Shown here piece after piece: positions 54,764-64,000 of a stretch of 64,000 nucleotides of DNA (within the stretch, counting starts at the first letter, position 1; each line of letters starts with the position of its first letter). The stretch comes from Bradyrhizobiaceae bacterium (lineage in GTDB: Bacteria; Pseudomonadota; Alphaproteobacteria; Rhizobiales; Xanthobacteraceae). A model generated the notes under the pieces. That model saw nothing but the letters and a program-made list of their open reading frames with translations, was not told where the DNA came from and made no database searches. Location: positions 376,574-440,573 of the forward strand of contig CP078014.1 in NCBI GenBank assembly GCA_020544565.1, given 5' to 3'. Made by a program: the position numbers and the translations under genes.

Positions 54764-57510
<2,747 letters not shown>

Positions 57511-57514
<4 letters not shown>

Positions 57515-57645
57515 CCGTCTCGCTGGTGTGGGGGTTCGCAGGTTCGCTAAGGAGCGCGCTGCAAAATGAGGCGAACTTCGGATTCAGGACACGAGGACAA
57601 CACATCCATATTGCGCCGACGCCGGAGCAGAGGGCACGACAATGA
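57511..57645 (+). CDS. 44-codon ORF coupled by ATGA overlaps to both neighbours
   Basis: ATG 57511 overlaps ATPase TGA; its TGA 57643-57645 overlaps the acyltransferase ATG; GGAGG upstream. Confidence 0.35.
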
Positions 57646-58583
57646 CGACGAAAACGTCCGACAATTATCGGAAACTGATCGATGCGGTGAAGGCGTTCCC
57701 GCCGATGCCGACCGCGGTGGCGCATCCTTGTGATGTGTCGTCGCTGGAGGGCGCGGTCGATGCCGCGCAGATGGGCATCATCGCACCGATCCTGGTCGGC
57801 CCGCGTCGCAAGATCGAGCAGGCCGCCAAGACGGCGAAGCTCGATATCTCGCCTTACGAGATCGTCGATGCCGAGCACAGCCACGAGGCTGCGGAGAAGG
57901 CGGTTCTGCTGATCCGGCAAGGTCGCGCCGAAATGCTGATGAAGGGATCGCTCAGCACCGACGAACTGCTGGGGGCGGTCGTCAAGAAGGACACCGGGCT
58001 GCGGACGGCGCGGCGGCTGAGCCATTGCTTCGTCATGGACGTGCCGAACTATCCGCACGTCCTGATCATCACCGACGCGGCGATCAACATCTTCCCAACT
58101 CTCGAGGACAAGGTCGACATCGTCCAGAACGCCATCGACCTCGCTCACGCGCTCAAGATCGAAAATCCGCATGTGGCGATCCTGTCGGCGATGGAGAAGG
58201 TCAATCCGAAGCTCCAGTCTACGGTCGAGGCTGCTGCGCTGTGCAAGATGGCCGATCGCGGCCAGATCAAGGGCGGCCTGCTCGATGGGCCGTTGGCGCT
58301 CGACAACGCCATCAGCCCCGAGGCGGCGCGGATCAAGGGCATCACCGGACCGGTCGCGGGGCATGCGCATATCCTGGTGGTGCCGGATCTCGAAGCCGGC
58401 AACGTGCTGGCGAAAAGCCTCAGCTTCCTGATGGCCGCGGAATCGGCCGGCGTGGTGCTCGGCGCGCGCGTTCCCATCACCCTGACCAGCCGTGCCGATT
58501 CCGTGCACAGCCGGCTCGCCTCCGCCGCCGTGGCGGCGCTGATCGCGCATCGGCGGCGGGAAAAAGCGGCGACGGGAGCCTAG
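57642..58583 (+). CDS. pta: Phosphate acetyl/butyryl-transferase (short PTA/PTB form)
   Basis: MLMKGSL; TDAAINIFP; LLDGPLALDNAIS; ILVVPDLEAGN; PITLTSRAD. Confidence 0.9.
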   Translation: MTTKTSDNYRKLIDAVKAFPPMPTAVAHPCDVSSLEGAVDAAQMGIIAPILVGPRRKIEQAAKTAKLDISPYEIVDAEHSHEAAEKAVLLIRQGRAEMLMKGSLSTDELLGAVVKKDTGLRTARRLSHCFVMDVPNYPHVLIITDAAINIFPTLEDKVDIVQNAIDLAHALKIENPHVAILSAMEKVNPKLQSTVEAAALCKMADRGQIKGGLLDGPLALDNAISPEAARIKGITGPVAGHAHILVVPDLEAGNVLAKSLSFLMAAESAGVVLGARVPITLTSRADSVHSRLASAAVAALIAHRRREKAATGA

Positions 58584-58585
58584 GG

Positions 58586-59764
58586 ATGAGCGACGCCATT
58601 CTGGTGCTGAATGCGGGCTCGTCGAGCCTGAAATTCACCGACTTCGTCGTCGTCGACGGCAAGCTCGAGATCAAGGCCGCCGGCAAGCTGGAGGAGCTGT
58701 ATGGCCGGGCGCGCTTTCAGGCGCGAGATGCCACGGGCGCGGTTGTCGGAAAGCGGGAGTGGCCCGAGGACGCGCCGCCGCGCCATGACGGGGCGCTCGC
58801 GTTCCTGTTCGACTGGCTGCGCGACTATTCGGGCGATGCGGTCGTCGCCGTCGGGCATCGCGTGGTGCACGGCGGAGAGAGCTATTCGACGCCGGTGATC
58901 CTCGATCCGGCCGTGGTGAAGACGCTTCACGCCCTTGATACGCTGGCGCCGCTGCATCAGCCGCACAATCTGCTGCCGGTCGACATCATCGCCGAGCAAC
59001 GCAAGGGGCTGCTGCAGATCGCCTGCTTCGATACGGCCTTTCATCAGACCGCGCCCAAGGTCTCGCAGGCGTTCGCGCTGCCGCCGGCCATCACCGAGCG
59101 CGGCGTGCGGCGCTACGGGTTTCATGGCTTGTCCTATGAATACATCGCGTCCGTGCTGGGCGACTATGATGCGCGGGCCGCCGCGGGCCGGACGATCGTC
59201 CTGCATCTCGGCAACGGCGCCACCATGTGCGCCATGCTCGACAGCAAGAGCGTGGCGTCGACTGCGGGTTTCACGGCGCTCGACGGGCTGCCGATGGGCA
59301 CGCGCTCCGGAACGCTCGATCCGGGGGTCGTGCTCTATCTCGTGCAGGAACTGGGGATGACCGGCAAGGAGATCGAGACGCTCCTGTATAAGGAGTCTGG
59401 TCTTCTCGGCGTCTCCGGCGTGTCCAGCGACATGCGCGCGCTTCTTGAAAGCGACAGTCCGCGGGCGAAGTTCGCGGTCGAGCTTTTTGTCTACCGCATC
59501 GTTCGCGAGGTCGGGTCGCTGGCCGCGGCGCTGGGCGGTCTTGACGCCCTTGTGTTCACGGCGGGCATCGGTGAACACGCCGCCGCAATCCGGGCGGCCG
59601 TCGCGCCGCACCTCGCCTGGCTCGGGCTTGAGCTCGATCCGGCCGCGAACGACAGGAACGGTCCCCGCATCAGCCGTGCGGACAGCCGCGTGGCGGCGTG
59701 GGTCATTCCGACCAACGAAGAACTGATGATCGCGAAACACTGCCTGACGATGATGGGTCGATAG
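58586..59764 (+). CDS. ackA: Acetate/propionate kinase
   Basis: LNAGSSSLKF; GHRVVHGG; APLHQP; FDTAFH; RRYGFHGLSY; FTAGIGE; PTNEE. Confidence 0.95.
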   Translation: MSDAILVLNAGSSSLKFTDFVVVDGKLEIKAAGKLEELYGRARFQARDATGAVVGKREWPEDAPPRHDGALAFLFDWLRDYSGDAVVAVGHRVVHGGESYSTPVILDPAVVKTLHALDTLAPLHQPHNLLPVDIIAEQRKGLLQIACFDTAFHQTAPKVSQAFALPPAITERGVRRYGFHGLSYEYIASVLGDYDARAAAGRTIVLHLGNGATMCAMLDSKSVASTAGFTALDGLPMGTRSGTLDPGVVLYLVQELGMTGKEIETLLYKESGLLGVSGVSSDMRALLESDSPRAKFAVELFVYRIVREVGSLAAALGGLDALVFTAGIGEHAAAIRAAVAPHLAWLGLELDPAANDRNGPRISRADSRVAAWVIPTNEELMIAKHCLTMMGR

Positions 59765-59815: not shown

Positions 59816-61030
59816 TCAGCCGCAGTGATCGGTTTCCCGGAGCGGGTGCTTGAGCAGCGGCAGAAAGCCCGCAAGCCACAGCGCGAAGGCGGCCGACCAC
59901 AGCGCGGCGCTGACAGCGTAGTGCGATCCGAGGAGCATCGGGGCCACGCCCAATTCCGGCAAGACCCGCACCGCGCCGGCGGCGGTCATCAGAACAAGCG
60001 CGCCATGCGCCTGCCATGGCAAGTCCAGCGACCGGCCGGTGTGGCGCAATCCGGCGATGATGAACACGCTCAAAACGGCGAGGCCGAGGCTCGCGACCGA
60101 CAGGATGTGCAGGCCCGTGGTCGGGGAGAGCGGAGCACCGAGCCCGGCCAGCCCGATCACCGTGAAGCCCGCGCCGGCGAAGAGGTTGGCGCCGGCCAGA
60201 GCGAGGACATGGGCGCGAAACACCGCGACGCCGATGAACCATTCGGCCAGACGGTCGAAGAACGCGGCGGCGGCCGCCAGCGCCAGATAGGCGGGCACGG
60301 TCGAGCCGGGTGCCAGCAGGGCGACGATTGCATAGAGCGCGACCAGCCCGGCCGTGAGATTCTGTCGTCCCGGATGGGGGCGGTAGGGCGTGGTGTCGCC
60401 GCTCGGATCGAGCGCGAGGTTGATCACCGCGACGTTGATGCGGGCGATGGCGAGTGAGAAGAACACCAGAAAGATCATCAGCGAGGTCTGCAGCAGACGG
60501 CCGGCGAGGTCGGTGAGGCCGGTCAGCCATGCGACGCGAATGCCGAGCTCCATCAGCCAGAACAGCGCCACCCACACCGCAAACGAGCCATGCCGCGTGC
60601 TGCCGCGCTCGATCAGGGCCTTGAGCACATACCAGAACAGCACGCCGTAGAACGCGAGGTCGGTCGCCGCCGCAACGACGATGAGCGCGTCTATTCCGAG
60701 AAACCCGATGATGCGGCCGGGCAACCACAAGCCGAGAAGAAGCAGCAGCGCTCGTCCCTGACGCGGGCGCGTGTCGGTCCATTCGGGCACGGCCGAGGCC
60801 AGGAAGCCGGCCAGCGCCGCGCCATAGGTGCCGAAGATCATCTCGTGAGCGTGCCACTGGCTCACCGGCACATCGCGGGCAAACGGCAGCGAGAACGACA
60901 GCAGCGTGACCCAGACCAGCGGCAGCAGCACGGCGTGACACGCCGCCACCGGAAAGAACAGCCGCAGCGCCTCGACCAGCCAGGGGCTGACGGGAACGGA
61001 CGTTTCGGCAGGACGGCAGCTCTCGGTCAC
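59816..61030 (-). CDS. nnrS: NnrS family membrane protein
   Basis: EALRLFFP; WHAHEMIFG...GFLASAVPEWT; GLRHTGR; about 12 TM; GTG start overlaps ATPase-subunit stop. Confidence 0.85.
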   Translation of the reverse strand: MTESCRPAETSVPVSPWLVEALRLFFPVAACHAVLLPLVWVTLLSFSLPFARDVPVSQWHAHEMIFGTYGAALAGFLASAVPEWTDTRPRQGRALLLLLGLWLPGRIIGFLGIDALIVVAAATDLAFYGVLFWYVLKALIERGSTRHGSFAVWVALFWLMELGIRVAWLTGLTDLAGRLLQTSLMIFLVFFSLAIARINVAVINLALDPSGDTTPYRPHPGRQNLTAGLVALYAIVALLAPGSTVPAYLALAAAAAFFDRLAEWFIGVAVFRAHVLALAGANLFAGAGFTVIGLAGLGAPLSPTTGLHILSVASLGLAVLSVFIIAGLRHTGRSLDLPWQAHGALVLMTAAGAVRVLPELGVAPMLLGSHYAVSAALWSAAFALWLAGFLPLLKHPLRETDHCG

Positions 61031-61770
61031 GGCGCACGCTCCCGTCTGCCATCGAACAATTCGCGGAATTTTTCCTCGCGCGACCAGCTTTCGACAAAGG
61101 CGAACACGTCGCGGTTGTCGCGCTCGCCCGGCTTGCCGTCGAGCAGCCGGTTCTCGATGACGCCGCCGGCGTCGCCGGAGAGAACGACGATGCGGTCGGC
61201 GATCCGCACTGCTTCCGACAGATCGTGGGTGACGAACAATGCGGAGAAGCGGTCGCGGGCGGCGGCCTCGATCACAAGATTCTGGAGCGAGCGCTTGAGG
61301 CCGACATCGACGGCGGTGAACGGCTCGTCGAAGAACACGACATCGGGCTCCACCGCGAGCGCGCGCGCCACCGCCGTCCGCTGGCGCATGCCGCCAGACA
61401 GTTCCGCGGGATATTTGTCGAGATCGCGGCCTTCCAGGCCGACCTCGCTGCCGCGCCGTTCCGCGATCTCCTCGCGCTGGCTGGCCTTCATGCCGGAGGC
61501 GCGCAGGCCATAGGCGATATTGTCGCGCGTCGTCATCCACGGCAGCAGCCGCGGCTCCTGAAAGACGACGGCGTGGCGCCGGTAGTTGCGACGCACCCGG
61601 CCTTGCAGCGGATCGATCAGGCCGGCGGCGATCTGCAGCACCGTGGTCTTGCCGCAGCCCGAGGGGCCGACCAGCGCGACAACCTCGCCGGCCTCGAGCG
61701 AGAGGTCGATCTTCTCGAACACGGGCCGTCCGAGAAACGCGTGGCCGATGCCTTCGAGGACAAGCTTCAT
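61027..61770 (-). CDS. ABC transporter ATP-binding protein (NitT/TauT type)
   Basis: GPSGCGKTT; VFQEPRLLPW; LSGGMRQR; DEPF; VTHD. Confidence 0.93.
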   Translation of the reverse strand: MKLVLEGIGHAFLGRPVFEKIDLSLEAGEVVALVGPSGCGKTTVLQIAAGLIDPLQGRVRRNYRRHAVVFQEPRLLPWMTTRDNIAYGLRASGMKASQREEIAERRGSEVGLEGRDLDKYPAELSGGMRQRTAVARALAVEPDVVFFDEPFTAVDVGLKRSLQNLVIEAAARDRFSALFVTHDLSEAVRIADRIVVLSGDAGGVIENRLLDGKPGERDNRDVFAFVESWSREEKFRELFDGRRERAP

Positions 61771-62579
61771 CGCTTGACCCCCCAGGGCAGGCCGGCCTCG
61801 CGCCAGCGTTCGAGCCGGTCGCGGATCGGATGCAGGATCCCGTATTCGGTGATCAGCGCGAAGGCGACGACGGCCACGATCAGGGCCATCACGCGCGGGA
61901 TGTCGAACAGCGTCCGCGCGGTCGCGAGTTCGCCGCCGATGCCGCCGGTGTTGGACAGAAGCTCGGCCATCACCGTCACTTTCCATGCCGTGCCCGCCGT
62001 CGTGGTCCAGGCCGGAAACAGATAGGAGATCAGGTGCGGCGCGGTCACCGTGCGAAACCGCAACCAGATGCCGGCGCCGAACGCGCGGGCCATGGTGTCG
62101 AGCCCGCGGTCGCGCGTGGCGACGCCTTCCAGTCCGCCGGCAAAGGAGATCGGCAGCGCCGCCACGATGACGGTCATGATCGCCGACCCGCCGGTCGATC
62201 CGAACCAGATCAGCGCCAGCACGATCCAAGCGATCGGCGGCACGCCGAGGATGACGGTGACGATCGGGCGCATCAGCCGCATGGCGGCGAACGAATAGCC
62301 GGCGATGGCGCCCGTGGTCGTGCCGATCCCCACGGCCAGAAGGAATCCGATCAGCGACCGCTCGGCGGTTTCCCACGCGGCCGTGGCGAAGGCCGGCTCC
62401 TGCGCGATGGCTATGAGCGCGCGCAGCGTTTCCAGCGGCGACGGCAGGATGAAGGAGCCATAGAATTCATGGCCGGCCTGCCACGCCGCCGCGAAGCAGA
62501 ACAGGCCGGCGGCACCGGCCCATGCCGACCACACATAGCGGCCGGCCCAGCCTGCGAAAGCGAGACTGCGGGTGAGCAT
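61767..62579 (-). CDS. ABC transporter permease (NitT/TauT type)
   Basis: ILPSP; LGVPPIAW; MARAFGA; WKVTVMAELL..TGGIG. Confidence 0.9.
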   Translation of the reverse strand: MLTRSLAFAGWAGRYVWSAWAGAAGLFCFAAAWQAGHEFYGSFILPSPLETLRALIAIAQEPAFATAAWETAERSLIGFLLAVGIGTTTGAIAGYSFAAMRLMRPIVTVILGVPPIAWIVLALIWFGSTGGSAIMTVIVAALPISFAGGLEGVATRDRGLDTMARAFGAGIWLRFRTVTAPHLISYLFPAWTTTAGTAWKVTVMAELLSNTGGIGGELATARTLFDIPRVMALIVAVVAFALITEYGILHPIRDRLERWREAGLPWGVKR

Positions 62580-62581
62580 CC

Positions 62582-63553
62582 TTACAACGCGTAAAAGGCG
62601 TCATCAGGCAGCTTGCCCCCGATGATGCGCGGATCGTCCTCGGCAAGCATGGAGAAGAAGCGCTCCAGATCCGGACGAATGGAGGACGCCGCCAGCGCGG
62701 CGAGATTGCTGTAGGGGATCGCCTCCGCCACCACCGGGCTCAGCAATCCCAATTCCGTCGCCGAGACGACAGAGGCGCGATAGGGGTGCTCCACGACGTA
62801 GTCCACGGCCGATTCCAACGCCTTCTGAAACGCCGCCAGTCCGGCGGGACCGAGCCTGTCGGCGAACGGCCGGGCAACGACAAGACCGGCCTGCGGGATG
62901 AAACCGCTGCCGCCGATAATTCTCGCCCATTCTTTCTGAAAATCAATGGCGCGCACAAGGCCGCTCATGCTCAATTTGCCGCGCAGGATCGCCGCCGTTG
63001 CGCCGGGCTCCGACAGCAGTGCGGCCTCGACGCGGCCGGCGAGCAGCATCTGCATCGCCTCGGGCGGCGTGCCGGAATATTCGAACCGGACGTCCTGACC
63101 GACCTTCATGCCGGCCTTGGCGACAAGACGGCGCATCAGCAGGTCGGGCATATCGTTGCGGAACGGCACCGCGATCGTCTTGCCGGCGAAATCCGTGATG
63201 CGGGTGTATTTGTCGCTGCCGACGATATAGAGCAGCCCGCGCGTCATGATGTTGAGGAGCTGGATGGCGAGGCCACGGTTGTAGAGGTTGGCTGCGACAT
63301 TGCTGGGCACGATCACGGCCTGCATCGCGCCCGAACTGAGTCCGGCGCGCATCTCGTCCGGAGTGCGCCACGACCTGAAGGCGGCCGCGGCATCGACCTC
63401 CTTGAGCGCGCCGTTGGCAATTGCCTGCGCCAGCACGATCGAGGGCGCCGCCGGTGGCCCCCACAGCGTCAGCGGCCCCGCCGCCGCCCGCGCCAGATGC
63501 GGCGCAGCGAGAGCGATCGGCAAGGCAGCAACAAAACTGCGGCGGTTCAGCAT
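62582..63553 (-). CDS. ABC substrate-binding protein (NMT1/SsuA-like), Tat signal
   Basis: MLNRRSF; WRTPDEMRA; GKTIAVPFRNDMPD; ALLSEP; AAGGAGG RBS. Confidence 0.85.
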   Translation of the reverse strand: MLNRRSFVAALPIALAAPHLARAAAGPLTLWGPPAAPSIVLAQAIANGALKEVDAAAAFRSWRTPDEMRAGLSSGAMQAVIVPSNVAANLYNRGLAIQLLNIMTRGLLYIVGSDKYTRITDFAGKTIAVPFRNDMPDLLMRRLVAKAGMKVGQDVRFEYSGTPPEAMQMLLAGRVEAALLSEPGATAAILRGKLSMSGLVRAIDFQKEWARIIGGSGFIPQAGLVVARPFADRLGPAGLAAFQKALESAVDYVVEHPYRASVVSATELGLLSPVVAEAIPYSNLAALAASSIRPDLERFFSMLAEDDPRIIGGKLPDDAFYAL

Positions 63554-63635
63554 GCGAACCTCCTTGTTATTGGGCCCGCGCCGTGTGGCGCACGCCGTTG
63601 GTCGTCCTCTTGGCGAGGCATCCTAGCATGTCCGC

Positions 63636-64000
63636 TCAGAACCGCGCTTTCACACCGCCGAAATAGCCGCGCCCGTCGCCGGGAAGGAAGGCGGCCTGGT
63701 CCGGTCGCGCCTGATCGACCACCAGTGTGGAGGCGGCATAGGTTTCGTTGAACAGGTTGGTGATCTCGCCGAAGACCGTGATGGTGTCCGTCACCCGGTA
63801 TTCGGTGCGCAGGTCGACCACCACATAGGGATCGGCATAAAGGGTATTTTTGTTGTCGACCGGGATCTTCTCCGGACTCCAGCGGACCGCGCCCTGGACT
63901 TTCCACTGATCGGTCGCCTGGTATTGAAGCATGGCGTTGAGGAGATGACGCGGCGCACCGGCAAGCCGGTTGTTGCCGTAGGTCGCATCCCCGTCGAAAC
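63636..64000 (-). CDS. TonB-dependent outer-membrane receptor, C-terminal part (partial)
   Basis: GNNRLAGAPRHLLN...NTLYADPYVVVDL...FGEITNLFNETY...PGDGRGYFGGVKARF, terminal Phe; frame open to window edge. Confidence 0.88.
   Translation of the reverse strand, partial: FDGDATYGNNRLAGAPRHLLNAMLQYQATDQWKVQGAVRWSPEKIPVDNKNTLYADPYVVVDLRTEYRVTDTITVFGEITNLFNETYAASTLVVDQARPDQAAFLPGDGRGYFGGVKARF

Follow-up and report, generated by a model that had tools for sequence, protein, structure and literature searches.

The window analysed here is a stretch of 64,000 nucleotides from a Bradyrhizobiaceae bacterium (GenBank assembly GCA_020544565.1, contig CP078014.1, positions 376,574 to 440,573; G000:C1:376574-440573). 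Its last part carries five minus-strand genes encoding a TonB-dependent receptor, an exported substrate-binding protein, the permease and the ATPase of an ATP-binding cassette (ABC) importer and, as the last gene, the membrane protein NnrS. Our tentative reading, held at a little under even confidence, is that the operon is an uptake module with a dedicated NnrS, placed in a nitric oxide (NO) stress regulon and wired to iron status, which serves a scarce cargo other than pyrroloquinoline quinone (PQQ). Of 54 genome loci that were fetched independently, about 45 show the order receptor, binding protein, permease, ATPase and NnrS, all on one strand, and the arrangement is far beyond chance.

The operon, its conservation and its NnrS

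Genes were called from a six-frame listing of open reading frames, their translation, and profile searches against Pfam and NCBIfam. The five-gene unit proposed in an earlier sequence-only reading of the window is real, and its minus-strand reading frames match profiles. The ackA gene converges on it. From the last gene to the first, the operon consists of:

59816-61030, minus strand: nnrS, last operon gene; GTG start, 404 residues; PF05940 with 241 bits, E 2.6e-71
61027-61770, minus strand: ABC ATPase, 247 residues; ABC_tran with 101 bits; TauB/SsuB/NrtD-like
61767-62579, minus strand: ABC permease, 270 residues; BPD_transp_1 with 61 Pfam bits; NitT/TauT-like
62582-63553, minus strand: periplasmic substrate-binding protein, 323 residues; twin-arginine signal; SsuA/NMT1/PqqT-like fold
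63636-63998, minus strand: 3' end of the TonB-dependent receptor, first operon gene; last 121 codons of 782 residues

The whole receptor gene (782 residues; L002:4210-6558, minus strand) lies mostly past the window end, and the promoter region of the operon is entirely outside the window. Matches to both the Plug (PF07715) and the TonB_dep_Rec_b-barrel (PF00593) domains identify the product as a TonB-dependent transporter. The tight coupling claimed earlier holds for most of the operon. The permease and ATPase genes overlap by 4 bp (ATGA), as do the ATPase and nnrS genes (GTGA), and the gap between binding protein and permease is 2 nt. The claim does not extend to the receptor, which is set apart from the binding-protein gene by 82 nt. 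Export of the binding protein through the twin-arginine translocation (Tat) pathway is upheld by an N-terminal twin-arginine motif, both arginines of which are invariant across the family.

The 54 loci were obtained by scanning one genome per species with an alignment of binding-protein homologues, followed by tblastn searches with the five proteins. The five-gene order was found in Afipia, Bradyrhizobium, Pseudorhodoplanes, Variibacter, Bosea, Chelatococcus, Pseudochelatococcus, Enterovirga, Xanthobacter and Rhodovastum, as well as in metagenome-assembled genomes (MAGs) of a Burkholderiales and a Lacipirellula species. NnrS follows the ATPase in all genome loci with a contig long enough (50 of 50). 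Distant relatives, recovered by a metagenome scan and with binding proteins 32-37% identical to the one described here, retain the series binding protein, permease, ATPase and NnrS, with NnrS merely 20-23% identical. Two of these lineages encode an outer-membrane barrel protein, binding protein, permease, ATPase and NnrS, in that order. Genomes in which nnrS does not accompany this transporter would have spoken against the earlier reading, but nnrS is found with it wherever the contigs of both sets of loci allow. In a third distant lineage (L144:9288-14170, L106:9459-15177), variable unknown genes follow the binding protein, and the ATPase is separated from NnrS by a CadD-family (PF03596) transporter and a 100-residue reading frame. 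The first gene of that lineage (639 residues) has no significant Pfam match, with only a weak sub-threshold match to DUF2490.

The binding protein belongs to a family of 434 representative clusters at E<=1e-30. Its homologues are numerous and carry only generic names, as did those returned by an ESM Atlas search. In a sample of 201 genomes from its own taxonomic family, 27 encode the binding protein. These represent 17 of 62 genera, and within the same genus 2 of 6 genomes have it, so the module is accessory and patchy. Literature searches on NnrS (alone, with TonB and with Irr) and on PqqT and PqqU yielded no description of this operon.

The operon carries the sole NnrS gene of this genome, with a PF05940 score (241 bits) well above the cut-off of 28. 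In Afipia and Bosea loci, a canonical NnrS is also encoded nearby, scoring 360 Pfam bits versus 241 and only 27-30% identical to the operon NnrS. By sequence, the operon NnrS is thus a divergent paralog. Downstream of the operon in these genera (L040:12801-17936, L022, L043), the canonical second nnrS is accompanied by two U32-peptidase-family genes and an SCP2 gene. These three look like UbiU, UbiV and UbiT of oxygen-independent ubiquinone synthesis, which would make the region an anaerobic or NO-related island.

NnrS is reported to contain heme and copper. The AlphaFold2 (AF2) model of the operon NnrS has 12 helices at a mean predicted local distance difference test score (pLDDT) of 89, and its best folds in the PDB are NorB, CcoN and ba3 subunit I (TM-scores 0.5-0.64, weak E-values). 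The resemblance to subunit I of heme-copper oxidases fits this reported content. Among the sequences compared, the histidines H308 and H330 never vary, and at least 90% have H60. A search for a solved sequence relative of NnrS found none. Compared with subunit I of heme-copper oxidases and NO reductases, the model has far fewer conserved histidines, an observation that may bear on NnrS generally. In a study of Vibrio cholerae, NnrS reportedly protects iron-dependent metabolism from NO. This role fits the company that the operon would keep in the NsrR regulon of this genome, where its companions are a globin, a repair protein of hemerythrin type and a gene resembling NO reductase. Elsewhere NnrS has been called hypothetical or of unknown function (PMC1274295, PMC9409073).

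A fortuitous link between nnrS and the transporter, with a shared promoter and no shared function, is extremely unlikely. In its favour, many genomes have a solitary NnrS, as in B. diazoefficiens, where the gene diverges from nnrR (PMC6710368). The constant position of nnrS after the ATPase in genome and distant metagenome loci, often with overlapping reading frames, argues against such happenstance, as does the fact that the canonical NnrS, where present, is a separate and clearly distinct gene.

The genes surrounding the operon tell a different story. The sequence-only reading had suggested that the system shields the radical-SAM and glycyl-radical enzymes encoded next door, which is not borne out by the related loci. 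Of the neighbouring genes, ackA alone was matched in the 54 loci, through one 33-residue fragment in the closest relative. The pta gene, the P-type ATPase gene and two upstream reading frames had no match there. The adjacency of the operon to glycyl-radical genes is therefore a local coincidence. On the plus strand, positions 54764-59764 encode a 916-residue P-type cation ATPase, then a phosphate acetyl/butyryl-transferase (NF008852), then an acetate/propionate kinase. The last of these (ackA, 58586-59764, plus strand) is convergent with nnrS, and 51 nt separate the two stop codons.

Putative control by nitric oxide and iron

Three features were recognized upstream of the receptor gene:

L002 6600-6616: iron control element (ICE, or Irr box), 58 nt ahead of the receptor start; departs from the consensus at one of its 14 specified bases
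L002 6616-6638: NsrR-like box, a 23-nt palindrome abutting the ICE and lying over the predicted -10 element
L002 6623-6628: predicted -10 element, the sole sigma-70-like promoter match in the intergenic region, inside the palindrome

The 23-nt palindrome resembles the NsrR operator. The location of the -10 element inside the palindrome fits repression by NsrR. Among the related loci, NsrR-like palindromes are concentrated upstream of the operons, with 33 matches versus 3 in 861 kb of background. A matrix built from the sites upstream of operons was scanned over the whole genome, with a maximum of 16.1 in the shuffled genome. The best match (34.5 bits) falls between an Rrf2 gene, itself followed by a globin gene, and a divergent, qNor-like COX1-family gene. 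The second match (23.8 bits) separates another Rrf2 gene from a RIC/DnrN-type gene with a hemerythrin domain. Together, the two best NsrR-type operators of the genome (G000:C1:1751041 and 2982273; L067, L066) delineate a compact NO-stress regulon. The site of the operon itself scores 17.4, above the shuffled maximum, and orthologous sites in related loci are much nearer the consensus. The palindrome probably serves as operator for an NsrR-like sensor of NO, because the top sites of the genome front classical NsrR targets (qNor-like and hemerythrin genes). The two Rrf2 proteins of the genome score equally as NsrR and RirA, under both cut-offs. The NsrR regulon is described in PMC1274295 (Rodionov 2005).

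Other loci appear to reach NO control by different routes. A divergent Rrf2 gene lies directly upstream of the operon in 14 loci, and its product likewise scores alike as NsrR and RirA. An NnrR box, following the consensus of PMC1274295, is located about 180-200 nt upstream in four Bradyrhizobium loci and two unclassified MAG loci (five perfect, one with one mismatch). A Crp/Fnr gene is found near the operon in 13 loci. The present genome also has a divergent gene of the Crp/Fnr family, located outside the window at a distance of 267 bp upstream of the receptor. The putative NsrR-type or NnrR-type operators upstream lend substance to the link with NO that the earlier reading had drawn from NnrS. 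No riboswitch or leader RNA was matched in Rfam upstream of the operon here or in three related loci. At L054:6440-6545, and also in L004, L019, L028, L031, L032 and L050, about 30 conserved nt precede a strong, GC-rich hairpin. In L054, L032 and L050 it is placed between the NnrR box and the receptor start. The element has no Rfam match and could be a leader or an attenuator.

Iron status appears to provide a second input. The ICE consensus bound by Irr, as quoted in PMC1698941 (Rodionov 2006), occurs with at most one mismatch at only two sites in the 4.1-Mb genome of 65% GC. One is the site of the operon, and the other is a perfect copy before a VIT1/MbfA-like gene. The perfect copy (G000:C1:535513; L057:3014-3030) is located directly upstream of this VIT1-family (MbfA-like) iron exporter gene. 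Two mismatches are found at four genome sites. Three of them have as neighbours, respectively, a TonB receptor/PepSY_TM pair, an ETF-QO gene and a gene for a molybdopterin Fe-S oxidoreductase. The genome encodes Irr with scores above the NCBIfam cut-offs, so that both the box and its regulator are present, as expected of a member of the Irr regulon. Across the related loci, ICE-like sites number 15 just upstream of the operon versus one in the remaining 861 kb. In one distant metagenome group, the first gene is preceded at 5-25 nt by a Fur-like box. Scans with Fur, FNR and NsrR consensus sequences were noisy in the AT-richer metagenome loci, and only this positionally repeated Fur-like box was retained.

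Candidate cargo and proposed role of NnrS

The closest solved relatives of the receptor and, among proteins of known ligand, of the binding protein are PQQ binders. For the receptor, the nearest solved chains are PqqU/YncD (6v81 and 9c4o) with an E-value of 1e-26, versus 1e-6 for FhuA. The AF2 model of the binding protein (pLDDT 93) is closest in Foldseek searches to the uncharacterised Parabacteroides protein 3hn0 (1e-19), followed by PqqT with PQQ (9b1u/9b1v; 1e-16, TM-score about 0.7, 20% identity) and then by SsuA, Thi5, TauA and ThiY. Scavenging of PQQ or a close quinone cofactor, through a PqqU-like receptor, a PqqT-like binding protein and the ABC importer, would be one reading of this kinship with 6v81, 9c4o, 9b1u, 9b1v and 9ooz. 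However, the residues that contact the ligand in these proteins have been replaced. Operon receptors (15 sequences) were aligned with E. coli PqqU (L069), in which Y99, R304 and R365 of the binding site matter for PQQ uptake (PMC12124388). In all 15, Y99 is replaced by Pro and R304 by Thr or Ser, with R365 kept. K274 is conservatively replaced by Arg, and Q84, Q308 and N477 are replaced by Asp or Glu in all operon receptors aligned. The receptor reaches 111.8 bits against the NCBIfam model of PqqU (NF041535), far under its cut-off of 1200. In the binding protein, a profile alignment to 9b1u places Pro136, Asp137 and Ser181 at the positions of K142, N143 and the stacking Tyr188, which are the ligand contacts of PqqT (PMC11331073). 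An invariant Glu182 lies beside the last of these.

The gene content of the genome is equally at odds with PQQ, as no match to PqqC, PQQ_2 or GSDH was found in the 98%-complete single-contig assembly. Furthermore, regulation by NO and iron has no evident tie to PQQ. As a candidate cargo, PQQ was rejected on the altered contact residues and the gene content. Because the contacts are replaced in both proteins and the genome has no match to PqqC, PQQ_2 or GSDH, PQQ is judged from the sequences to be a very unlikely ligand, and the same grade applies to the scavenging reading as a whole. The scarce metal complex or cofactor suggested as ligand by the sequence-only reading is still a fair description, given that the nearest solved relatives are PqqU and PqqT and that their ligand contacts are not kept. 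The acidic shift of the pocket residues would point to a cationic or metal-bearing ligand.

The system could also be an ordinary NitT/TauT importer of nitrate, nitrite or sulfonate, with nnrS attached by happenstance. We consider this quite improbable. The best family-level matches of the ABC components are indeed to taurine, sulfonate and nitrate systems, and the source annotation names NitT/TauT. The permease best matches SaoP, SsuC and TauC in NCBIfam (all far under cut-off), and the ATPase best matches the taurine, SaoA and nitrate ATPases (all under cut-off). For the binding protein, matches to NMT1_2, Phosphonate-bd and SsuA_fam are weak, and all are under the equivalog cut-offs. With every equivalog score far under its threshold (TauB 169 versus 357, SsuA_fam 38 versus 163), the tie of the importer to the taurine, sulfonate and nitrate systems is, as judged from these profiles, one of family resemblance only. 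Small anions need no TonB-dependent receptor, and SsuA and NrtA are more distant from the binding protein than 3hn0 and PqqT are.

Salvage of an organic cation or cofactor precursor is a further alternative. The cell would import, for instance, a compound like thiamine or hydroxymethylpyrimidine (HMP), whose own synthesis needs Fe-S enzymes sensitive to NO and iron supply, and NnrS would merely be a co-regulated NO-stress protein. The binding protein has its fold in common with ThiY, Thi5 and a thiamin-binding protein, acidic and aromatic residues occupy its pocket positions, and regulation by NO and iron would suit such a function. Yet the Rfam search revealed no riboswitch upstream. Precursor salvage would also leave unexplained why NnrS is translationally coupled across lineages in which it is only 20-23% identical. 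We regard this alternative as unlikely.

The reading that we favour, an uptake module with a dedicated NnrS, might operate as follows. The TonB-dependent receptor, the Tat-exported binding protein and the NitT/TauT-type permease with its ATPase would form a co-transcribed module that spans the envelope. The divergent NnrS, as the translationally coupled last gene, would be dedicated to this module. Control by NO stress would be exerted through the NsrR-type operator over the predicted -10 element, and elsewhere through NnrR/FNR-type boxes or a dedicated divergent Rrf2 regulator. Iron status would be sensed through the Irr box here and through the Fur-like box in the distant lineage. The receptor and the binding protein likely derive from the PqqU and PqqT lineages, with PQQ contacts lost and acidic pocket residues gained. 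The cargo would be scarce and other than PQQ, most likely a cationic metal species or a metal chelate connected with the repair of iron centres under NO stress. NnrS at the inner membrane might then be a redox or protective partner of the importer. In a more specific version, which we consider rather unlikely, a subfamily of NnrS would serve an ABC importer as its obligate redox partner in the inner membrane, and the heme-copper-oxidase-like centre of this NnrS would act on a metal-containing cargo during import or protect it from NO.

Several points weigh against this proposal. The receptor is absent from four loci that keep the other four genes (a Devosia, two Chelatococcus and one MAG). The NsrR-like site of the operon itself is weak, with six mismatches and rank 9 in the genome. 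The ICE lies just downstream of the predicted -10 element, and under the published position rule such a placement suggests that Irr represses the operon when iron is low, which is of opposite sign to the lineage with the Fur box. The iron link may therefore reflect only the heme cost of NnrS. The cargo is deduced solely from lost PQQ contacts and gained Asp and Glu residues, and the alignment of barrel residues in the receptor is one of low identity. Bare transition-metal sites typically involve His, Cys or Tyr, none of which is invariant in the binding-protein family, and this makes a free metal ion a doubtful ligand.

If the more specific version is correct, the partnership of NnrS with an importer would represent a new kind of nutrient acquisition induced by NO stress, as well as the first concrete biochemical role for NnrS. 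The operon makes NnrS function testable, and NnrS sits in the NO regulons of many bacteria, including pathogens and denitrifiers. The PqqU and PqqT lineages would have relatives with a different cargo, which calls for caution in the annotation of PQQ importers by homology.

Comparison with known systems

PqqU (YncD) of E. coli (6v81, 9c4o; PMC12124388) is by a wide margin the closest solved relative of the operon receptor, which shares with it R365 and carries Arg in place of K274. Unlike PqqU, the operon receptor comes together with NnrS and an ABC importer, in a genome in which PqqC, PQQ_2 and GSDH were not detected. The binding protein shares the type II binding-protein fold with PqqT of Methylobacterium extorquens AM1 (9b1u/9b1v; PMC11331073). 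In contrast to PqqT, it lacks equivalents of K142, N143 and the stacking Tyr, and PQQ would not be expected as its ligand.

NnrS of Rhodobacter sphaeroides and Vibrio cholerae (PMC1274295, PMC3345576) likewise belongs to the Pfam family NnrS, with 12 transmembrane segments, and control by NO-responsive regulators (NsrR/NnrR) would be a further point in common. Control of nnrS by NO-responsive regulators is known from many proteobacteria (Rodionov 2005, PMC1274295). The NnrS of those systems is monocistronic, whereas the operon NnrS is divergent and in every case closes an operon for an ABC importer.

TonB-ABC metal uptake systems under Irr/ICE and Fur control (Rodionov 2006, PMC1698941) also combine a receptor with an ABC importer behind an iron-regulator box. 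The operon differs in that its ABC importer is of NitT/TauT type rather than FecCD type and in the addition of a putative NO operator and nnrS. The position of its ICE also suggests repression rather than activation.

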